A stretch of 32,000 nt of DNA from Candidatus Iainarchaeum sp. (GCA_043808785.1 JAZDEL010000002.1:1-32000), one strand, 5' to 3'; positions 10,349 to 27,437 are shown, counted from the first letter of the stretch. Notes: generated by a model from the letters alone, not told the origin. Translations and numbers: made by a program.

Positions 10349-10526
10349 TGCGACTGCCGGGAATCGAACCCGGGTCTGAACCTTGTTGCAAGAACCTCCT
10401 GTGAGGCTTCGGAACCGCAGGTTCCGCCGCCCTGCAGAACCCGCAAGGGTTCTGCCGCAAGGGAGGTATCGGAACCGTAGGTTCTGATGTGGCAAGGTCC
10501 AAGCCTAACCGCTAGCCTACAGTCGC
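10349..10526 (-). tRNA. tRNA-Gly (anticodon GCC) with a 106-nt intron at 37/38 (intron 10384-10489)
   Basis: The acceptor is GCGACTG/CAGTCGC plus A73, the D arm GGCT-AGCGGTTA-GGCT, the anticodon stem GGACC/GGTTC, the variable loop AGAC, and the T arm CCGGG-TTCGATT-CCCGG. The spliced loop is TTGCCAA. A 3' CAA bulge and a perfect 4-bp central helix UUGC/GCAA are present, and the 5' bulge is enlarged (relaxed BHB). The A/T box ttttaaaa at 10558-10565 lies about 32-39 nt upstream. Confidence 0.75.
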
Positions 10527-17817: not shown

Positions 17818-18477
17818 TCATATAACCGTCGCCACAAACAGCAGCGTTATCCCCACGAGCGCCATCACAACTGTTATTATTATGCTGTCAATCGTGACCG
17901 CGCCGCCGAAACTGCCGAAAAACAGGTAGAAGTCAGCGGCGAGGAAAACAAATCCCGCGAAAAGAAGCGCAAGCGCGACAAGCCTGTTCCTTCCCCCCAC
18001 GCCCTTCACTTTTATCTCATCCATGTCCACCTGAACCTTCTGCACAGCCTCCCCTAAATTGTTCAATTGCTCCCTTACGCGGTCGCTTAATTCAGCCACG
18101 CGCCGAACGTTCTCGTTAATCATCTCCTGAAACGTCTTGCTCTGCCCGGTGATGTCCTTCTCATATTTCTTCAAATCCGCCATCACCGCTGCCTCAACCT
18201 TCTCCTTGCTCCCCGCAACGCTCTTCTCAACGGTTTTTGAAATGTAATCCTCCAGCGCGGGCTTCTGCTTCTCCAAATCAGCAGCTACAATTTTCGAAAT
18301 CTCGCCCCTGAGTAAGGCAAATGTATCGGCTTGGCCAAGGAGCAATAACCTCTTGGCTTTGTCCGGCTCCACGCCCAAATCCTTGAGCGTCTGTACAATC
18401 TTCTCCTCGCTCTCCCCTTCCTCCACCATCTTCTGGATGATGTCGATTATTCCCGCTTCGCCCATCTGTTTCGGCAT
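17818..18477 (-). CDS. Coiled-coil protein with C-terminal transmembrane helices
   Basis: A long charged helical region is followed by LVALALLFAGFVFLAADFYLFFG and IIITVVMALVGITLLFVATVI. Confidence 0.55.
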   Translation of the reverse strand: MPKQMGEAGIIDIIQKMVEEGESEEKIVQTLKDLGVEPDKAKRLLLLGQADTFALLRGEISKIVAADLEKQKPALEDYISKTVEKSVAGSKEKVEAAVMADLKKYEKDITGQSKTFQEMINENVRRVAELSDRVREQLNNLGEAVQKVQVDMDEIKVKGVGGRNRLVALALLFAGFVFLAADFYLFFGSFGGAVTIDSIIITVVMALVGITLLFVATVI

Positions 18478-19330: not shown

Positions 19331-20158
19331 CTAAACCTTTATCTTTCCCCTCTGCCAGTCGGCAATTATCATGCGCGACATAGTTTCAATATCAGGTTCC
19401 CCGCCCTTCACAAGGCGGTTCCTCGCCACGGCGATTTTCTCTATTGTTTCGTAAGGGTCCGCGCCCTCGGCAATTTCAAGCCCGTAACACCCTGCAAGCC
19501 CCTTCCTGTTGTGCTCGAGCAGGTATTTCACAATTCTTTCGGCAGCGGCAACCCTGTCCTTCAATTGGTTCGGGCTCAGCGCATTCAAAAGAACCAAATC
19601 CTGCCACGGCTTTCCCCTGAACGAAACCACGCCCGGCGTGTCTATAATCAGCACGCCCTCATTCACCCTTATGAACTGCTCCCCGCGAGTGAACGCGGCC
19701 TGCGCCGATGTCCTTGCACTCCCCCTTCCCGAAAGGTAATTTATCAGCGAACTCTTGCCCGTGTTCGGATACCCGAACGCCCCTATAATCAGCCCGCGCT
19801 GCGAAACCCTGTGCTGCATCTTCCTGCCCAGTTCCTTTTCCGCTGTGGAAATAGCCCTTTTGAGTTCGTTCTTCCCCGTGCGCTCGGTGCACGAGACAGG
19901 CACAACAACAAACCCCTTCCTCCGCAGTTTCAGCCTCAGCGCCTTCAGTGCCTGCCCTGAAATTAATTCCGCCTTGTTCAGCACGACTATGAGCCCCTTG
20001 CCCATCCACTGCACCTTCTTCTCGAGCATGAAATTGCGCGTTTCCTGCGCAAACCTTGCATCAAGCACTTCAAGCAGTATGTCGCTCTTCCTTATGACGC
20101 GCAGCACGCGCTTCTCGAATTTCCTGTCCTTCATTTTTTTGTCCTTTGTTTCCTTCAT
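19331..20158 (-). CDS. Circularly permuted GTPase (YlqF/RbgA-like ribosome-biogenesis GTPase family)
   Basis: The motif order is G4 (VLNKAEL), then G1 (GYPNTGKSSLIN), then G3 (IIDTPGV). This order is diagnostic of cpGTPases. Confidence 0.75.
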   Translation of the reverse strand: MKETKDKKMKDRKFEKRVLRVIRKSDILLEVLDARFAQETRNFMLEKKVQWMGKGLIVVLNKAELISGQALKALRLKLRRKGFVVVPVSCTERTGKNELKRAISTAEKELGRKMQHRVSQRGLIIGAFGYPNTGKSSLINYLSGRGSARTSAQAAFTRGEQFIRVNEGVLIIDTPGVVSFRGKPWQDLVLLNALSPNQLKDRVAAAERIVKYLLEHNRKGLAGCYGLEIAEGADPYETIEKIAVARNRLVKGGEPDIETMSRMIIADWQRGKIKV

Positions 20159-20216: not shown

Positions 20217-20759
20217 TCAGTCTGAGGCCCATCTCCAAAGTATCAAGAAAATTAAATTGTGCCCCTCCCCGACCATTTCCTCCATAAGGCTGAGCAAAGT
20301 TTCCTGTTTCTCCTTTTCCTTGCCTGCGATGGCTTTCATGAACTTCTCAGCCTCCCACGTGGCAACATTCCCCCTGCCGAACTTATTCCTCGCATTTCCG
20401 AACATCCTGATGAACTTGCCCTTCAGCTTACGGTCCATTGCGGCTGTTTTCTCTATCCTCCTCCTGAGTGGCACATTGTCAAGCTCTTCAGCATATATTC
20501 CGTGAATGTAGTTCGTTGCTCCCCTGTACGGCACTCCGCCAGTGTGCGTTGGCGCAAATCCCCTGCTCCTGGCCCACTTGCTTATCTCACCACGCTCCTT
20601 CTTCGTTATTTTTGAAAGTGCTATGTTCCTTATGTTGGGTCCCCCGCCACTCTCAACAAATGCCGCCTTCCTGCCAGTAACTGCCTTCTTCCTGAGTTCT
20701 CTCAGCATCGCCAGCCTTTCCACAAACTTCGGGTTTCCGCGCCTGTGCATTTTATTCAC
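20217..20759 (-). CDS. Basic protein, short member of the local multi-HTH paralog family
   Basis: Its GTG start overlaps the upstream TGA (GTGA); an alternative ATG lies at 20750. It shares the block F(I/L)(R/K)MFG(N/S)A(R/K)xKFG with ORF 20756-21664. Confidence 0.55.
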   Translation of the reverse strand: MNKMHRRGNPKFVERLAMLRELRKKAVTGRKAAFVESGGGPNIRNIALSKITKKERGEISKWARSRGFAPTHTGGVPYRGATNYIHGIYAEELDNVPLRRRIEKTAAMDRKLKGKFIRMFGNARNKFGRGNVATWEAEKFMKAIAGKEKEKQETLLSLMEEMVGEGHNLIFLILWRWASD

Positions 20760-21664
20760 CTTTTATCCGCGCTCCGCCCGTATTCCCGCGCTATTTCTAT
20801 TCCTGTGTTGAAAGCCCTAAAAAAGCCGTCCCTATTCCCGGCATCAACATAGCCCCGCATCCTTTTCAGGAAATCCTCCATCCTGCCCCCGCTGTTATGC
20901 AAAGCCACGATAAGGTCGGTTACCTCGCTGTCGCTTATTTTCGCGCCCCCAAACTTCCTCTTCGCGCTCCCGAACATTTTCAGGTATTCGCCAAGCAGCC
21001 GCTTATTCATGCCGGTTTCTTTTGAAAGCCACCCAATTATTCCCAGCCTTTCCAAATGGTGCTTAAGGTGCCGCCTCCTGAGCGATTTGCTTATTTCGCG
21101 CAGGTATTCTTCCTTATGCTTAAGCAGTTCCCCCCTGTCAAGCGCAAAAAATACCTTCGGCACTTTATTGCCCATAATTCTCACTGCCGGCGCGCTGCCT
21201 TCCTTGTCATTTGCCCAGATATTTACCGAACCCTCCGAAACGCCCAGCGTATCAGCCACTTTTTTTGCGCCCAGATAGTTCCCTTTTATGTAATTCTCCA
21301 TGACAATTTTTTCAATGATTCCTTTCAGTTCTTCAAGAGGCAGCCCCACAACCGCCAATTTCCCCCCGCGATTCATGCGCCTCCACGGGAGCTTACTCAC
21401 CTCTTTATGGAGCCAGGTGTTCCTCGATATATTATATCTGCTGTAGAAATCCAGCTTGCTGACATGTTTTGTGCTGTCGAATATTTCAAATGAATCCCTC
21501 CGCTTTTTCAGAAGCGCCAGCTGTTCATCGCTTATCGGGCTCTTGAACCCGGCATTTTTTATGATGTGTTTGGCCATCGAATCGCTTACCCCAAGAGTGA
21601 GCCCGACCTTGCCCGGGCCGTGGTGCGGTCCATGCCGTGCGTTGGGGCGCATTTTTCCCGCCAT
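20756..21664 (-). CDS. Basic multi-helix-turn-helix protein, paralog family member (302 aa)
   Basis: HTH-like segments are LTLGVSDSMAKHIIKNAG and AKKVADTLGVSEGSVNIWAN. The module KLDFYSRYNISRNTWLHKEVSKLPWRRMNRGGKLAVVGLP aligns with TDFINELGIRLGKYATGFKAWRIGKIKWEKRVNEQGMVINALP of ORF 21948-23510. Confidence 0.6.
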   Translation of the reverse strand: MAGKMRPNARHGPHHGPGKVGLTLGVSDSMAKHIIKNAGFKSPISDEQLALLKKRRDSFEIFDSTKHVSKLDFYSRYNISRNTWLHKEVSKLPWRRMNRGGKLAVVGLPLEELKGIIEKIVMENYIKGNYLGAKKVADTLGVSEGSVNIWANDKEGSAPAVRIMGNKVPKVFFALDRGELLKHKEEYLREISKSLRRRHLKHHLERLGIIGWLSKETGMNKRLLGEYLKMFGSAKRKFGGAKISDSEVTDLIVALHNSGGRMEDFLKRMRGYVDAGNRDGFFRAFNTGIEIAREYGRSADKR

Positions 21665-21673
21665 TTTCCCACC

Positions 21674-21907
21674 TTACTTCGCAGCCCCCTTCATTGCCTC
21701 AAACCCCGCCCTTGCGAGGTAAAACCCGCCGAACACCAGAATCGCGACAACGCCAAGCACGCCCCACACGCTGTACTGCGAAAAAAGCCTGTCAATCGTG
21801 AACACGCCCTGAAACTGCGCAAGCCATCCCGCAAGCCCGAGGCTGAGCGCGAAAGCAAGAACGCCGATGAGCAAAACAATGGCGCTGTTTATCCAGTTCA
21901 GTTCCAT
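21674..21907 (-). CDS. Small membrane protein with two TM helices
   Basis: The hydrophobic helices are INSAIVLLIGVLAFALSLGLAGWL and VWGVLGVVAILVFGGFYL. It is tightly packed between the paralogs. Confidence 0.5.
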   Translation of the reverse strand: MELNWINSAIVLLIGVLAFALSLGLAGWLAQFQGVFTIDRLFSQYSVWGVLGVVAILVFGGFYLARAGFEAMKGAAK

Positions 21908-21947
21908 GTTGATTAATTGGCGCGAACTTTAATTTATTGGTTTGCTT

Positions 21948-23510
21948 TCAGCGCAAGGCTGAATATATTGGTTTGCTTTTCTGTTTCTGCTCCATTTCAA
22001 TCCTCTGCATTTTCCTGACAGTGCTATCGAATGTGCCGTAGAACTCGGCCTCCCTTTTCGCATCGCTTAATACGTAGTCGATATACTTGTATATTTTGTT
22101 CGGATTTTTTTCCTGCGACAGCGCGAGCATGAAATATTTGATTTTCGGCAAAGAGTATTTCTCCAAATATTCCTTGCCGTTCATGTTCCTAAGTGTGTCG
22201 AAGTGCCTCAGCATTCCGTCAATTACCCCCCCATCCAGCTTTTCGGAAAACGCAGCCTCTATAAAACGGAAACTATCGGGAGATTTCTTCAGCGTTTCGC
22301 TGATTTCCATATCAGCCTCGCGCTCCCATTTCTGCCGCTGCCCTTTCCCCGTTTTAAGATAATGCAGTTCCTTCAGTGCAGCCTCGTTGTTTTGTATTGA
22401 CTTAATGAACTTGCTTATCTTAAGCGTGCTCAGCGTTTCCTCCCCCAATTTCTCCTGCCTTTTCCTTAGCAGTTTTATTATTGATTTTGCCGTGTCCAAC
22501 CCTGCCCCTTTTTCAGCCATCTCATTTTCCCAATTCGCATCCGTCCTTGCCTTCATGCCCTCCTTCCGCAGGTATTCCCTGTTCGCCTTAATGTATTCCC
22601 TGTCCACAAGGGTAAATCCCCTGCCTTTTAGGACTTTGTCCTCAGGGATTTTTCCGAGCCTAACCAAAAGGTCAACCGAGCCAAACGATGTGTTGAGAAT
22701 CGGGCACGCATCCCTCAGCGTCACTTTGCCTTTCGATTTTTCAATAAACTCCCTTAGCTTCTCAACCGCCGAATTTATCCTCGGGTCGCCCTGCTTAAGG
22801 TAATGCGTCTCGCGCCCCCTGCTCTTGAATGTCGGCCAGCCTTCTGCTATCTCCTTTGAATATACGACAACATATCCGAAACTTGGATTTATCCCGTGGC
22901 ACTCGAGAAGGCGCGGGATAGTTATTATCTTCCCGAGCCTCGGGTGATTAATCAGCATGTCTTTTATTTTCGGGGTTTTGCCCATTTTCGAGAGTTTCTT
23001 CTCCTTCTCTCTTTTCATCATTTCCTGATATTCTTTCTCCTTTTCGGGGTCGCCCATATCCCTGACGGCGTTTTTGATTTCCTTGCCGCCCCTCGGCAGC
23101 GCGTTTATGACCATCCCCTGCTCGTTCACCCTCTTTTCCCACTTTATTTTGCCTATGCGCCATGCCTTGAAGCCAGTGGCGTATTTGCCGAGCCTGATTC
23201 CCAACTCATTGATAAAATCGGTCTTTGTTACCTCCGCCTTCCTGTCAATGAACGGCACCTTCCTTTCCTTCAGCAGCCGCGTCACGAATTCGGGGGAAAT
23301 CAGAACCTGCCTGTTTTTTAACAGCCTGCCTGAGGGGCCAAACTCCTTGAAAATAACGTCCTTTGGAACCGCGTTTGCCCTCTTCGCGCGGTTTATTATG
23401 GAAGAGGTGCCCTTAAATCCAGTTGCCAGCGCTGCTTCCTGCGGCGTGAAATACATATGCTTAAGCCTGATTTTTTTGAGGCTTGCGCCGGTGCCTGCGG
23501 CATTGGGCAT
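21948..23510 (-). CDS. Basic multi-helix-turn-helix protein, paralog family member (520 aa)
   Basis: Excisionase-like HTH segments are YFTPQEAALATGFKGTSSIINRAKRANAVP and VTLRDACPILNTSFGSVDLLVRLGKIPEDKVLKGRGFTLVDREYI. It aligns along its N-terminal and central regions with ORF 24166-25707 (shared IKWEKR, ALP, DP(R/Q)I). Confidence 0.6.
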   Translation of the reverse strand: MPNAAGTGASLKKIRLKHMYFTPQEAALATGFKGTSSIINRAKRANAVPKDVIFKEFGPSGRLLKNRQVLISPEFVTRLLKERKVPFIDRKAEVTKTDFINELGIRLGKYATGFKAWRIGKIKWEKRVNEQGMVINALPRGGKEIKNAVRDMGDPEKEKEYQEMMKREKEKKLSKMGKTPKIKDMLINHPRLGKIITIPRLLECHGINPSFGYVVVYSKEIAEGWPTFKSRGRETHYLKQGDPRINSAVEKLREFIEKSKGKVTLRDACPILNTSFGSVDLLVRLGKIPEDKVLKGRGFTLVDREYIKANREYLRKEGMKARTDANWENEMAEKGAGLDTAKSIIKLLRKRQEKLGEETLSTLKISKFIKSIQNNEAALKELHYLKTGKGQRQKWEREADMEISETLKKSPDSFRFIEAAFSEKLDGGVIDGMLRHFDTLRNMNGKEYLEKYSLPKIKYFMLALSQEKNPNKIYKYIDYVLSDAKREAEFYGTFDSTVRKMQRIEMEQKQKSKPIYSALR

Positions 23511-23562
23511 AGTATGATTAGTGCTTTCAGGAATTTATTGCTTTGCTTTATGCCGCGCGCGG

Positions 23563-24003
23563 CTATCCCTTTTTGCCGCGCTTTTTGGATGCCTTTTTCT
23601 TTGCCGCGGGCTTCCCCTTTGCCTTCACGGCCTTTCGCTTTGCGGGCTTCGCCTTCCTCGCCGCCCTGCGTGCGGGAGCCTTTGCCTTTCCCTTCCCCTT
23701 CGCAACAGCAGGCCTCTTAGCGGCGCTTGGAATGGCAATCCCTTCCACAACCCTGAAAACCTGCGCAACAGGCCTCACAGGCTGCACAATCTTCATTCCA
23801 ATGCTCTGCCCGGCCTTCGCTTCCATAACCTTATCGTGCTCTATCTGCATGCTGTCCACTGTCTGCGAGAAGGCCTCCCCGCCCTTCTTGATTACTATTT
23901 CGTCCCCCTGCTTTAAAGTTCCTGTGAGGTCAACCACTGCGACGCCTATCTTATCGTAGTAATGAGATATTTTCCCGACAAGCTTTTCAGCCAAAAACAT
24001 CAC
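23563..24003 (-). CDS. EF-Tu domain 2-like beta-barrel protein with a Lys/Ala-rich histone H1-like tail
   Basis: LVGKISHYYDKIGVAVVDLTGTLKQGDEIVIKKGGEAFSQTVDSMQIEHDKVMEAKAGQSIGMKI matches the small 'translation elongation factor-like' barrel family. The C-terminal roughly 50 aa are AKRPAVAKGKGKAKAPARRAARKAKPAKRKAVKAKGKPAAKKKASKKRGKKG. Confidence 0.65.
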   Translation of the reverse strand: MMFLAEKLVGKISHYYDKIGVAVVDLTGTLKQGDEIVIKKGGEAFSQTVDSMQIEHDKVMEAKAGQSIGMKIVQPVRPVAQVFRVVEGIAIPSAAKRPAVAKGKGKAKAPARRAARKAKPAKRKAVKAKGKPAAKKKASKKRGKKG

Positions 24004-24165
24004 CCTTCTAAATAGGCACGAAGTTAATAAATTGTTAGCGTTTGCGGGTTCCGCAGGGCAGTGAAAAAAAGCAAAAACAAGCCCCCCAAAACAAAACCGC
24101 GAACGTGGGTTTCCCGCGGTTTGCGGGATTATTTTCGTGGTTCAAAGCAGTTTCGGGACCCTGTG

Positions 24166-25707
24166 CTAATCAGCCCGTGAACCGGATATGGCATCTATTA
24201 TTCTTTTCCTGTACCATTCCTTATCTTCGGTCGTTTTCTGCAGGTTATACTCGTACTGCAGCCCCATAATTTTTGCGTGTTCAGCCTGTATTTTGCCCGG
24301 CGTCCAGGATGCCGTGTAATTGTCTACCACCTGCTGAGGCAAGCCAAAGCTGCGCTGCATCCCCGCCACCAGATTTGCGAATTTTTGCTTTATTTCTAAT
24401 TGCTGGCGGTTCCACCTGTAGCTTACCTGCCCTGTTTTGGGCGGCGGCTGCGAAATTTTGCGCCCGCCCGCTTTTGTTGCGGCGCTTTCCGCCCCAAGCT
24501 TCGGCAAGCCCAGTTCGCGCAGCCTACGCCCCACGATCACTCTGAGGCGCGTTATGTTTTCGGGATGCTCGAAAAATTTCCTTGAGAGGTAGTGCTTGCC
24601 CTTGTGCGTTATCACTTCATCCCCCAACTTCCCCTTCAGGAATTCCCCGAGGCGGAACTTGTAGGCGGCGGCGCGCGCCATTTCAATCCCCATAGTATTT
24701 CCTACTTCGGCCATTCCAGCATATTCCTGCAGCACACCGTCCCTCTTTTGCTTTATCCTGAGCGAGCTGTCGAACGAAGCGGCCTTTTCCAGCAGTTTGT
24801 CCAGCATTTCCTTGTTTTTCAGCGCATAATCCCTGTTGATGTAATAGCGCCCCCCGAACTCGATTACCCTGTCGCTGTTGTATGGGCCCTCTGGCACGTT
24901 TTTCAGTATAAATCCGTGCTTTATCGCGGCAGTCACATATGCGTTGTTTTTGCCAAGTAGCCGCGCCAATTCTGCCGCAGGCATGCTTTTTTTAACCGCC
25001 TTCTTCAGGCGCCAAGCGGCTTCTTCAAGCACCTTGATTTGCGGGTCGTCAGGAAGCAGGTATTCTATGTTGCCCTGCTTTTCTATTGGAGCCTTGCCGC
25101 CCTTTCCATAGCCCGACCGGTAAATTCTCCACTTAACCATTTTCTTCAGGAAATCGAAGCGTTCCGTCTTTTCTCTTGAGGGTACTGCGCCAAAAAACAT
25201 CGCAAGGAACTTCGGCCAGCTGTACATGTTATGGACATGAATTTTATATAATCCCGCTTCCTTCAGTTTTTGCTCTATTTTTTTAATTTCCGCATCAGGC
25301 AGCGCATACACGATGTTCGGCCCGCGCTTCCCCCTGATAATCCGCTTTTCCCATTTGATGCCCCCAATTATTTCCTTTTTTGCCTTTGTGAGCTTGTTCT
25401 CGTACCAAACACCCTGGTCTTCAAGGAACACCTTCTTTGTTGTCTCGGTTTTTTCGTCAAATTCCTTTACCCCCTCCCTTTCCACAGCCAGGCTCCTGAC
25501 AAAATCGGCATCAACGAAATACTGCCGTTTCATTACTGTTTTCGGTTTGCCGCCCCATAAAATGCTCGTTTGCACAGGACGTTGCGATAGTGCGCCCGCG
25601 CCCTTTGCCCTGAGCATTATTATCTTGCGCTCAAAGCCCGTCAGCCGTTCCGCATCTTTTATGCTGTGATGCAGTTGTCCCGCGGCTTTGTTCGGCGGTT
25701 TCGGCAT
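24166..25707 (-). CDS. Basic multi-helix-turn-helix protein, paralog family member (513 aa)
   Basis: HTH-like segments are SIKDAERLTGFERKIIMLRAKGAG and MPAAELARLLGKNNAYVTAAIKHGFI. It shares IKWEKR, YALP, DPQI and YINRDY-type blocks with ORF 21948-23510. Confidence 0.6.
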   Translation of the reverse strand: MPKPPNKAAGQLHHSIKDAERLTGFERKIIMLRAKGAGALSQRPVQTSILWGGKPKTVMKRQYFVDADFVRSLAVEREGVKEFDEKTETTKKVFLEDQGVWYENKLTKAKKEIIGGIKWEKRIIRGKRGPNIVYALPDAEIKKIEQKLKEAGLYKIHVHNMYSWPKFLAMFFGAVPSREKTERFDFLKKMVKWRIYRSGYGKGGKAPIEKQGNIEYLLPDDPQIKVLEEAAWRLKKAVKKSMPAAELARLLGKNNAYVTAAIKHGFILKNVPEGPYNSDRVIEFGGRYYINRDYALKNKEMLDKLLEKAASFDSSLRIKQKRDGVLQEYAGMAEVGNTMGIEMARAAAYKFRLGEFLKGKLGDEVITHKGKHYLSRKFFEHPENITRLRVIVGRRLRELGLPKLGAESAATKAGGRKISQPPPKTGQVSYRWNRQQLEIKQKFANLVAGMQRSFGLPQQVVDNYTASWTPGKIQAEHAKIMGLQYEYNLQKTTEDKEWYRKRIIDAISGSRAD

Positions 25708-25716
25708 TTCAACACT

Positions 25717-26073
25717 TCACAGCAGTTTCAAATGCCCCGTCAGTTTATCCAGCTCGGCATCCTCCGCAGGCCCGACCCCGAAGCATGTTTTCGTGCCGGG
25801 CGCGATCTGTGTGTGCCCCGCATCCTGCACAAGCGCGGGCTTCAGCCCCGCGTTTTTAACCTTCTGGAAAAGTTCAACAAGTTCGCGCTCGCTGTTCACT
25901 TTCAGCACAACTTTTTTCTGCCCCTCGGAGCGCCATTCATCAACATCATCAGGGCTCTCCCTCTCCGCGTTCTCCATCGCCATTATGCTCGCGTGCGAGC
26001 ACTGCGCCGCTATTTTTCCCCTGCCCATTTTAAGGTCGGTGCGGACTACAATTACCTGTTTCATCCCAGCCAC
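25717..26073 (-). CDS. pth2: Peptidyl-tRNA hydrolase, archaeal/eukaryotic type (Pth2)
   Basis: MKQVIVVRTDLKMGRGKIAAQCSHAS...KVVLKV.SE.EL......AGL...LVQDAGHTQIAPGT.T..GVGP is the characteristic PTH2 sequence pattern. Confidence 0.85.
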   Translation of the reverse strand: MAGMKQVIVVRTDLKMGRGKIAAQCSHASIMAMENAERESPDDVDEWRSEGQKKVVLKVNSERELVELFQKVKNAGLKPALVQDAGHTQIAPGTKTCFGVGPAEDAELDKLTGHLKLL

Positions 26074-26143: not shown

Positions 26144-26311
26144 GCTTTTGATTTTGCGAAGCAAAATCCTTCTTTTTGTCAACTTCCCGTTTTGGCAAAA
26201 GCCAAAAGGGCCCTTTTGGACCAGCCTATTTTGGCTCACGTCAAAATGGGCGCAGTTGGGCAATGCCCAACTAGCGCAGCCCAAAACGGGTTTCTTGCAA
26301 AGAAAAAGTTG
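26144..26311. repeat. Mosaic palindromic repeat locus R4 (modules B, split C, D, E)
   Basis: A 5'-shortened module B lies at 26146-26178. The 18-nt perfect palindrome ccaaaagggcccttttgg at 26202-26219 is identical to 27231-27248. Module E lies at 26228-26277. The right half of module C, tttcttgcaaagaaaaagttg, lies at 26291-26311. The arms cccgttttgg (26186-26195) and ccaaaacggg (26281-26290) bracket the inner modules. Confidence 0.85.
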
Positions 26312-26365
26312 CAGTGGAAATCAGCCCTGCGCGCGTTTTTAAACCGTGCCAAGGCATAATTTTTC

Positions 26366-26782
26366 ATGCAGAGGAAATTCTACCTCGACACCGCGATATG
26401 GATGGATTATTTCGGCGCGCGCGGCAACGGCATCAGGCCGCTCGGGGACCTCGCATTCCAGTTGCTGAAGAAGTGCCGCGAGGATAATTCGCAGATTATC
26501 GTTTCAGATGCCGTTACCGAGGAACTTGAAGCAAGCCTCTCCAAAGCGGAAATAGAAGCGATGTTTTCCGGTTTTGCAGGGCTAATTGCCAGGGTCTGGC
26601 GGACAAAGGAACAGGCAGTAGAGGCATTTGCCTTGCGCAGGAAATTAGGCAGCGAGTTCCCGCTTTACGACATCCTGCATTCGATTATTGCTAGAGATGA
26701 GAAAGCGGTTCTTGTCGCGCGCGACAGGCATTTCTGGGAAATTGGCATTGCGGAAGTTTGCCTGCCCGAGGATTTGCTTTAG
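26366..26782 (+). CDS. PIN-domain protein (VapC-like ribonuclease)
   Basis: The acidic PIN positions are present: FYLDTAIW (D near the N-terminus), VTEELE, LYDILH and ARDRHF. The size is typical of VapC toxins. A TATA-like box gtttttaaacc lies at 26334-26344. Confidence 0.7.
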   Translation: MQRKFYLDTAIWMDYFGARGNGIRPLGDLAFQLLKKCREDNSQIIVSDAVTEELEASLSKAEIEAMFSGFAGLIARVWRTKEQAVEAFALRRKLGSEFPLYDILHSIIARDEKAVLVARDRHFWEIGIAEVCLPEDLL

Positions 26783-26849
26783 CGCCCGCCTAATTCCGCG
26801 CATTGCTTTGGCTCAGGGCGCGGATGCATGCCATTTGGGGCCGAAGTCT

Positions 26850-27149
26850 TCACGGCTTTATGCCGAATTGTTCGCACAGCCTCTTTTCCAGTTCCCTGCT
26901 CCCTTCGCCGCTTCTCCATGCGTGAAATTCCTCGTCCGTTTTGAACCTGCCCTTCCCCTTGAATGCGCCTTTCGCGGCAAACAGCGCTTCCCACGCCTTT
27001 TTCTTCGAGCGCTCCCCGTCAAGTTCCTTGAGTTTCGCCCTTATGGCGTCCCTGATGAACTCTGTTTTGGTCGTATAATTGAACTCGCGCATTCCCTTTT
27101 CAACTTGCCTCGCAATCGAGGCATCCAGCTGAATGCTTATATGCTCCAT
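26850..27149 (-). CDS. Ribbon-helix-helix (CopG-like) DNA-binding protein
   Basis: The N-terminus ISIQLDASIARQVEKGMREFNYTTKTEFIRDAIRAKL is a canonical RHH (beta strand plus two helices). It is convergent with the PIN gene rather than co-transcribed. Confidence 0.7.
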   Translation of the reverse strand: MEHISIQLDASIARQVEKGMREFNYTTKTEFIRDAIRAKLKELDGERSKKKAWEALFAAKGAFKGKGRFKTDEEFHAWRSGEGSRELEKRLCEQFGIKP

Positions 27150-27185
27150 AGCATTAAATGCTACATAGTGCTTTTTAAAAAACCC

Positions 27186-27372
27186 GCGGTTCAGCCTTTT
27201 CTTATAAAGAAACCCGTTTTGGGCTAAAGCCCAAAAGGGCCCTTTTGGCGCAAGCCAAAACGGGAGGCTGGCGAAAAGAACAGCCCGCCTCTAGGCGGGC
27301 ACTCGCAGTTTTCGCCAACCTTTTGGAAGTGGGTTTGAGCCCAAGCGAAAACCCACGCTCCGAAAAGGTTGC
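27186..27372. repeat. Mosaic palindromic repeat locus R6 (modules F, D, A, G)
   Basis: Module F lies at 27186-27201, the 18-nt palindrome at 27231-27248, and module A (gcccgcctctaggcgggcactcgcagttttcgcca) at 27283-27318. The segment cttttggaagtgg lies at 27320-27332. The hairpin gtgggtttgagcccaagcgaaaacccac follows. Confidence 0.85.
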
Positions 27373-27437
27373 ACCGGAAACGCACCCTCCCAACCTTTTT
27401 AAACCAGGTTCGGGCAATTGTTATTCGGTGCGCGCAA

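Follow-up and report, generated by a model that had tools for sequence, protein, structure and literature searches.

In a stretch of DNA of 32,000 nucleotides (nt) from Candidatus Iainarchaeum sp. (GCA_043808785.1 JAZDEL010000002.1:1-32000; hereafter the window, at its full length), four minus-strand genes encode the proteins p513, p520, p302 and p180, which form two pairs of paralogues (that is, p513 with p520 and p302 with p180), have no detectable relatives and follow the native codon usage of the genome. We tentatively favour, at a little less than an even chance, the reading that these are lineage-specific nucleic-acid-binding proteins composed of concatenated Xis/MerR-type winged helix–turn–helix (HTH) units that bind DNA, serving as regulators or as architectural proteins. 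In this scenario, old local duplications would have given rise to the p513/p520 pair and to the p302/p180 pair, and each protein would be a chain of small MerR/excisionase (Xis, HTH_17) winged HTH units (at least three and possibly five in p513), each made up of a short HTH with a basic beta-hairpin as its wing and a helix after it. In analogy to Xis, BldC and RdfS, such concatenated units could attach to consecutive turns of double-stranded DNA, which they would bend or coat, and it is from this analogy that we infer DNA binding and any architectural role.

Two pairs of orphan paralogues

The source metagenome-assembled genome (MAG) is that of a Candidatus Diapherotrites archaeon (DPANN), and the content of the window is consistent with an archaeon (for example, an intron-containing tRNA, Pth2, NurA/HerA and an archaeal-type primase). 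As an earlier note on this DNA had described, six open reading frames (ORFs) lie on the minus strand between pth2 and a GTPase gene (Table 1), and the motifs that it quoted (IKWEKR, DP(R/Q)I, (Y/F)..(D/N)R(D/E)Y, LGVSEGSVNIWAN and MFG(S/N)A(K/R).KFG) are present. The proteins p302, p520 and p513 are each identical to a GenBank protein of this MAG, encoded on a contig of 269,610 bp. Coding reality follows from the presence of 1.5-kb ORFs at ~50% GC, which are not expected by chance; in addition, GC content is highest at the third and lowest at the second codon position in all four genes (GC3>GC1>GC2), and their codon usage matches that of those genes in the window that can be recognised as housekeeping. 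Judged from their composition, the four genes are real and native to the genome, with no sign of recent import. That p302 and p180 are a single gene split by a frameshift is unlikely: the annotated ATG of p180 (position 20750) lies 5 nt past a GGTGA that overlaps the p302 stop codon, an arrangement (GGTGA-N5-ATG) that fits normal translational coupling, and GenBank calls the two as separate genes.

Within each pair, the relationship is significant. BLASTP aligns p513 with p520 over ~320 amino acids at 24% identity (E=5e-8), and their Smith–Waterman score of 144 (shuffles 44.7±6.9; z 14.5; Gumbel P 5e-9) is attained by 0 of 300 shuffles. The stretch common to p302 and p180 is shorter, spanning 43-66 amino acids at an E-value of about 1e-6 (BLASTP E=7e-7 across 43 amino acids; Smith–Waterman z=7.7; hhalign 4e-7), and a global alignment suggests that p180 corresponds to p302 residues ~97-290. 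Between the pairs, BLASTP matches are weak (p520-p302, E=0.036; p513-p302, E=0.39), an hhalign comparison with a p513/p520 profile returns 0.09 for p302 and 0.23 for p180, and the Smith–Waterman shuffle P values of the cross pairs (0.016-0.57) lie in the same range as those of unrelated control pairs (p520-GTPase 0.033, p302-p219 0.017 and p180-p222 0.017). As the cross-pair scores are no better than those of unrelated controls, we describe the locus as two paralogue pairs. The earlier note had spoken of four paralogues amplified four-fold on the strength of shared motifs; pairwise, these are significant within the pairs and not across them, and the amplification is shown for two duplicated pairs only. 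At the level of modules, the IKWEKR-type module of p513/p520 shows some likeness to p302 residues 62-124 (hhalign P=0.0048; HMMER shuffle P 0.078), as does the ‘NRDY’ module to residues 122-196 (hhalign 0.061; HMMER shuffle 0.024), with shuffle tests of such cross-pair links by hidden Markov models (HMMs) giving 0.02-0.08. These two weak matches are collinear, which suggests kinship and falls short of proof; the two pairs may be distantly related to each other.

Each of the four proteins is a singleton cluster among ~15 billion proteins. Word-seeded homology searches with p520, p513 and p302 returned the query alone, even at E<=10, and in an exhaustive hmmsearch of 1.84 billion representatives with an N-terminal p513/p520 profile the true matches were p513 and p520 alone (two further matches are tandem-repeat proteins and were judged spurious, their weak scores being summed across repeats). 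Pfam, NCBIfam, PHROGs and PADLOC had no significant match to the four whole proteins or to the isolated modules; a match of Herpes_teg_N to p513 (E=0.014) was treated as spurious. The PADLOC models of anti-phage defence systems did not match any of the four, and the same proteins had no Pfam or NCBIfam match to the archaeal chromatin families (histone, Alba, Cren7/Sul7, MC1, HTa and TrmBL2), the non-significant AlbA match in these scans (E=0.14) belonging only to the neighbouring 146-residue protein. Sequence searches of the Protein Data Bank (PDB) with the A2, A3 and A6 profiles and with p302 alone reached chance level at best (Sm D2, 0.034; eL39, 0.42). No relatives were recovered by tblastn against GenBank phages and PLSDB plasmids, by scans of IMG/VR or by two scans of JGI metagenomes, and a scan for the DNA pattern of the degenerate motif MFG(S/N)A(K/R).KFG gave 23 matches, all judged to be chance, and no relatives. 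The earlier view that the proteins correspond to no known system is thus borne out by profile, structure-sequence, phage, plasmid, viral and metagenome searches. Orphan proteins abound in DPANN genomes, and the present case illustrates the share of DPANN ‘dark matter’ that is made up of fast-evolving orphan paralogues.

Orphan status and rapid divergence would also fit genes left behind, or carried, by a mobile element or virus, in which case fast-evolving HTH regulators of an integrated element would have been inserted between pth2 and the GTPase gene. Xis/HTH_17-type units are typical of phages and conjugative elements, the nearest structures in BFVD (see below) are phage proteins, and a PIN/ribbon-helix-helix (RHH) cassette with inverted repeats lies just upstream, with a Fic gene further upstream in the window. 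We nevertheless consider such an origin quite improbable, given that codon usage and GC3 are indistinguishable from those of housekeeping genes, that no homologue of the four was found in PHROGs, GenBank phages, PLSDB plasmids or IMG/VR, that the scanned ORFs of the window include no integrase, capsid, terminase or replication gene, that no direct repeats flank the four genes, and that an identity of 24% between p513 and p520 implies long residence.

Predicted modules and candidate ligands

For p513, an AlphaFold2 model was built from a two-sequence alignment (p513 and p520), the sole alignment available. The order strand-helix-helix-strand-strand-helix occurs three times in this model (residues 13-79, 241-310 and ~335-398), with a predicted local distance difference test (pLDDT) score of 50-75 for these modules. 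This is the topology of an excisionase/MerR-type winged HTH, and it agrees with the earlier description of the modules as a short HTH, after which come a hairpin and a (D/N)R(D/E)Y helix. By pLDDT, the better regions are residues 12-40 and 61-80 (~70), 241-310 (50-67) and 351-400 (55-64). Module M2 (Table 1) is conserved better between p513 and p520 than any other stretch and has a weak counterpart in p302 residues 64-120. Among the p513 modules, the score of the M4 profile against M5 is attained by 7 of 2000 shuffles and that of the M1 profile against M5 by 30 of 2000, which lends a modest degree of support to a weak likeness of M5 to M4 and M1.

When the p513 model was compared with the PDB by Foldseek, the compact matches (62-73 columns, root-mean-square deviation (rmsd) 3.2-3.8 A) were to MerR-type winged HTH domains only, namely those of CarH (probability 0.90), GlnR with DNA (0.77), RacA with DNA (0.63) and Tn916 Xis, and looser superpositions (rmsd 9-19 A) were obtained with TraN (rank 4 by E-value), lambda gpNu1 and CueR/NmlR. 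The top matches in BFVD were phage proteins of 60-100 residues labelled ‘MerR-like HTH’, ‘HTH domain’ or ‘Excise’ (probability at most 0.99, E 0.12-1). The excisionase/MerR likeness proposed in the earlier note finds partial support in that the Foldseek neighbours are mostly of that type, although no E-value is significant and the model is of low confidence.

The only sequence-level domain signal among the four proteins lies in p302 residues 124-165 (LGVSEGSVNIWAN), where weak matches to P22 Cro (0.014), HTH_23 (0.048), a small-terminase HTH (0.14), HTH_17 (0.17) and a PHROG ‘DNA binding protein’ (0.0047) are joined by one to YdaS (4.6e-4) with the module scanned alone. HTH_17 (PF12728) finds no match in the whole proteins, and the best value among isolated modules (0.17, for one of six) falls short of the family threshold, with no match for the other modules; a six-module profile searched against PDB sequences weakly matches mycobacteriophage Pukovnik Xis (4j2n, E=1.1). 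A model of the p302 module, for which the alignment consisted of the five other modules, gave a Foldseek list of RacA, Cro, Pukovnik Xis, BldC and MerR regulators, none of them significant. Taken from these predictions, winged HTH modules are weakly shown, and a multi-winged-HTH architecture would be the best available description, reached through convergent weak evidence with no single significant result.

Several observations weigh against the favoured reading. The p513 model is poor overall (mean pLDDT 45.6; predicted TM score 0.21), with ~60% of it below a pLDDT of 50, and it derives from two sequences. The likeness of M1 to M4 is not significant (hhalign and HMM shuffles), the modules fail to detect one another in leave-one-out HMM searches, no p513/p520 module matches any Pfam HTH model, and all Foldseek E-values (PDB, BFVD and the p302 module list) are at least 0.12, none being below 0.1. 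In the model of the p302 module (pLDDT 52), an HTH and a C-terminal helix are seen without a wing. The family is known from one MAG, hence no conservation backs any function. Winged-helix domains are also able to bind RNA or proteins, and a high positive charge is common to ordinary enzymes of the same genome. On this last point, the four proteins are indeed highly basic, as first described (isoelectric point (pI) 9.9-10.6), but not distinctively so, as their net charge per residue (~+0.08) is the same in the thymidylate kinase, GTPase, Fic protein and p212 of the window. Basic cytoplasmic proteins are common throughout the window (pI 10.1 for the thymidylate kinase, 9.55 for the Toprim primase, 9.8 for Fic and 10.2 for the GTPase). 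Given that ordinary enzymes are equally basic, high pI alone is no evidence of nucleic-acid binding in this genome, and the argument from charge for chromatin proteins fails against the genome’s own background. On the chromatin or nucleic-acid-chaperone role that the earlier note had suggested, the sequence analysis speaks neither for nor against.

It is also conceivable that the modules are not nucleic-acid-binding HTH units and that the proteins are helical scaffolds or protein-interaction factors, the winged HTH likeness having arisen from weak modelling and pattern reading. All HTH-family matches of p513 and p520, in sequence and in structure, are below significance, much of the p513 model (the ~60% given above) has a pLDDT below 50, and charge is uninformative here, as would be expected on such an account. 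Yet a single fold class is consistently over-represented among the Foldseek neighbours from each of two independent libraries, the same secondary-structure motif appears three times in p513, and HTH profile matches converge on p302; we accordingly rate this account as unlikely, if worth keeping in view.

If the proteins are arrays of winged HTH units that bind DNA, as we favour, their closest conceptual counterpart may be TraN of pIP501 (PDB 4pm3), which contains two winged HTH motifs and resembles Tn916 Xis, MerR regulators and BldC (PMC10877727). The likeness lies in the presence of several excisionase/MerR-like winged HTH units per polypeptide and in its rank of 4 in the p513 Foldseek list. 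TraN, however, is a monomer of ~120 residues with two units, encoded in a conjugation operon, whereas p513 and p520 have ~515 residues, three to five putative units and a helical C-terminal region and are chromosomal and archaeal; TraN has no sequence similarity to p513, and its Foldseek E-value (0.93) is not significant. Xis, BldC and RdfS assemble on DNA as head-to-tail multimers of single units (PMC5859096, PMC11963761), BldC binding direct repeats as cooperative multimers (PMC5859096). What links the present proteins to these members of HTH_17 is a predicted beta-alpha-alpha-beta-beta(-alpha) topology and the pattern ‘HTH ... G(R/K)x(Y/F)(I/V)x(D/N)R(D/E)(Y/F)’, and Tn916 Xis, Pukovnik Xis, BldC and phage Excise proteins are (non-significant) Foldseek neighbours of the models. 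Lambda and Tn916 Xis, BldC and RdfS differ in being single-domain proteins of 55-110 residues that form non-covalent oligomers, whereas the units predicted here would be covalently linked. A recombination directionality factor would be expected to have a tyrosine or serine integrase as neighbour within a mobile element; neither an integrase nor another hallmark of such elements occurs among the scanned ORFs of the window, and no repeats bracket the genes.

The N-terminal domains of the MerR family (CarH, GlnR, RacA and CueR) give the best local superpositions with the p513 model (70-73 columns, rmsd 3.2-3.5 A, probability 0.63-0.90), at E-values of 1.5-3.3. MerR regulators differ in that they possess one winged HTH and, after it, a coiled coil for dimerisation and an effector domain; neither the coiled coil nor the effector domain was detected in the four proteins. 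Several winged helices in a row are found in the SelB C-terminal WH1-4 region, in RPC3 of RNA polymerase III and in UFL1/DDRGK1, all of which appear among the whole-chain Foldseek matches; these matches (rmsd 18-34 A, probability at most 0.12) are noise, there is no sequence relationship, and the arrays do not bind double-stranded DNA. As none of the defined families fits by any test run, the proteins may best be filed as a single-genome variant of the broad winged-HTH class.

Transcription units and a possible wider role

The earlier note placed the genes within a housekeeping operon, and this is not what the arrangement indicates. The p513 start codon lies 9 nt past the pth2 stop, a spacing from which co-transcription of p513 with pth2 is probable, and a hairpin followed by oligo-U tracts downstream of p513 (Table 1) is likely to mark the end of the pth2-p513 transcript. 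An A/T-rich TATA-like box precedes the start codon by 21-25 nt in each of three genes, that is, the gene for the 146-residue protein (~25 nt), p520 and p77, a distance that suggests short or absent leaders. Downstream of p77, p302 and p180 each have a Shine–Dalgarno-like sequence (AGGTGG and GGTGA, respectively). As read from these elements, the locus is a set of several transcription units, with at least three predicted promoters and a terminator, and not one operon.

Two of these promoter regions carry an 18-nt element, AAAGCAAASCAATAWATT, of which the window contains three copies, all at this locus (0 of 100 shuffles had three or more matches). One copy ends shortly upstream of p520, and the other two stand in tandem at the 3′ end of p520, upstream of p77; the first of the tandem copies also codes for part of the C-terminal residues of p520 (KSKPIYSALR). 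This arrangement points to a promoter that was duplicated in tandem, over 31 nt, and has come to overlap the end of p520; the element itself may be a shared promoter (B recognition element/TATA) or a regulator site.

Translation-related genes are interleaved with the four on the same strand, namely pth2 (E=2e-46), a gene for an EF-Tu-domain-2-like barrel and that for a YlqF/RsgA-like GTPase, and p513 is probably co-transcribed with the first of these across the 9-nt gap. This raises the alternative that the proteins attach to RNA or to the ribosome, with the winged-helix arrays binding rRNA, tRNA or mRNA, and that they serve translation or the biogenesis of ribosomes along with the products of the neighbouring genes. 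There is precedent in SelB, in which four tandem winged helices bind the SECIS RNA (selenocysteine insertion sequence), and the SelB C-terminal array (2pjp, 1wsu) and pre-60S factors are among the non-significant whole-chain Foldseek matches. Those matches have probabilities of 0.05-0.23 and an rmsd above 9 A, however, whereas the compact local matches are DNA-binding MerR/Xis domains; moreover, the neighbourhood is not conserved at the loci of barrel homologues in three other genomes, and the genes belong to several transcription units, not one operon. We therefore regard a role in binding RNA or the ribosome as fairly improbable.

A more specific proposal within the DNA-binding reading is that p513, p520 and their shorter neighbours represent a new archaeal nucleoid protein, a ‘single-chain filament’ of three to five fused Xis/BldC-type units. 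One molecule would then wrap or bend several turns of DNA, for which other systems need cooperative multimers of separate proteins, and the design would have evolved in one DPANN lineage, perhaps autoregulated via the 18-nt direct repeats of its own promoters. We consider this a long shot. Should the module assignment itself be true, proteins of ~500 residues can be built by concatenating the Xis/MerR-type winged helix. This would be a compact route to a protein that bends or coats DNA, and the DPANN archaeon might possess in it a lineage-specific component of its chromatin. The general importance of the case is limited, as it concerns one MAG with no conserved context and no confident structure.

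Table 1. Features of the p513-p180 locus and its surroundings (window positions, except for the barrel homologues, which are given on their own loci)
Feature	Position	Strand	Basis or remark
p513, 513-residue orphan, paralogue of p520	24166-25707	-	MFH1224427.1, V1676_01355
p513 M1, residues 13-79, predicted winged HTH, best-modelled part (pLDDT ~70)	25471-25671	-	AlphaFold, Foldseek
p513 M2, residues 86-151, T.K.F ... IKWEKR ... ALP	25255-25452	-	alignments
p513 M4, residues 241-310, predicted beta-alpha-alpha-beta-beta-alpha, ends RYYINRDY	24778-24987	-	AlphaFold
p513 M5, residues ~335-398, third predicted HTH + hairpin + helix	24514-24705	-	AlphaFold, shuffles
p520, 520-residue orphan, paralogue of p513	21948-23510	-	MFH1224425.1, V1676_01345
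p302, 302-residue orphan	20756-21664	-	MFH1224423.1, V1676_01335
p302 HTH segment, residues 124-192: HTH (LGVSEGSVNIWAN) then FFALDRGELLKHKEEYL	21089-21295	-	weak profile matches
p302 segment in common with p180, residues 213-255 (YLKMFGSAKRKFG)	20900-21028	-	BLASTP, hhalign
p180, ORF of 180 residues	20217-20759	-	
p180 as GenBank gene, 177 residues	20217-20750	-	MFH1224422.1, V1676_01330; ATG at 20750
p180 segment in common with p302, residues 102-144 of the 180-residue ORF (FIRMFGNARNKFG)	20328-20456	-	BLASTP, hhalign
pth2	25717-26073	-	profile match E=2e-46
146-residue protein, EF-Tu-domain-2-like beta-barrel + Lys/Ala/Pro-rich tail	23563-24003	-	
p77, 77-residue predicted membrane protein, first gene of the p77-p302-p180 unit	21674-21907	-	
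275-residue GTPase, downstream	19331-20158	-	MMR_HSR1/RsgA match
Hairpin, then several oligo-U tracts, downstream of p513	24060-24123	-	sequence
18-nt element, copy 1 (AAAGCAAAGCAATAAATT)	23532-23549	-	ends 21 nt upstream of p520 ATG
18-nt element, copies 2 and 3 (AAAGCAAACCAATATATT and AAAGCAAACCAATAAATT), 31 nt apart	21931-21979	-	p520 3′ end; 23 nt upstream of p77 ATG
PIN toxin gene	26366-26782	+	
Ribbon-helix-helix antitoxin gene	26850-27149	-	
Outer inverted-repeat arms	26170-26219 / 27231-27280		50 nt, 84% complementary
Inner inverted-repeat arms	26278-26311 / 27192-27225		34 nt, 85%
Direct repeat, 44 nt	26302-26345 / 27362-27405		
Barrel homologue, locus L001	3219-3494		
Barrel homologue, locus L002	9998-10246		

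Neighbouring genes and the wider window

In the GTPase, NKAE (G4) near residue 71 comes before GYPNTGKS (G1) near residue 129 and DTPG (G3); from this order of motifs (G4 before G1), the protein is judged to be circularly permuted and YlqF/RsgA-like, which fits the ribosome-assembly GTPases. The 146-residue protein has an EF-Tu-domain-2-like Pfam match (E=7.5e-6, below the gathering score) and a tail of ~55 residues rich in Lys, Ala and Pro, and it is not related to the four proteins. Two homologues, one from a Woesearchaeota MAG (54% identity) and one from a MAG labelled Saccharibacteria (47%), comprise 82-91 residues; these and a homologue in a second Woesearchaeota MAG lack the tail, which on this comparison is a lineage-specific addition. 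With the barrel protein as anchor, three loci (two from Woesearchaeota and one from the MAG labelled Saccharibacteria) had no relatives of the four proteins, of pth2 or of the GTPase nearby, and a search for conserved neighbourhoods, as the earlier note had proposed, thus revealed none shared with these three genomes. At L001, a gene for an Sm-like protein follows the barrel homologue.

Directly upstream of pth2, the PIN/RHH pair lies within nested inverted repeats (26170-27405), and the palindrome CCAAAAGGGCCCTTTTGG is present in each outer arm and nowhere else in the window. The pair looks like a small mobile or recombining toxin–antitoxin cassette. Downstream of the array, p219 (17818-18477, minus strand; 219 residues) has a coiled-coil middle and C-terminal transmembrane helices. 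Its PADLOC match to LeoBC (E=1.9e-7; there is also a weak DUF2207_C match) is probably due to coiled-coil composition, and we did not accept it as a LeoBC homologue.

Elsewhere in the window, a tRNA (10349-10526, minus strand) is found by Rfam (178 nt, 41.5 bits) and absent from the ARAGORN output; its span of 178 nt implies an intron of ~100 nt. Between 647 and 8957, ORFs of 438, 365, 370, 308 and 156 residues without a Pfam or PHROG match surround an acidic protein of 1018 residues (pI 4.05, net charge -113) that contains CARDB, MopE-like metal-binding and DUF6438 domains, and this block is probably a cell-surface gene cluster.

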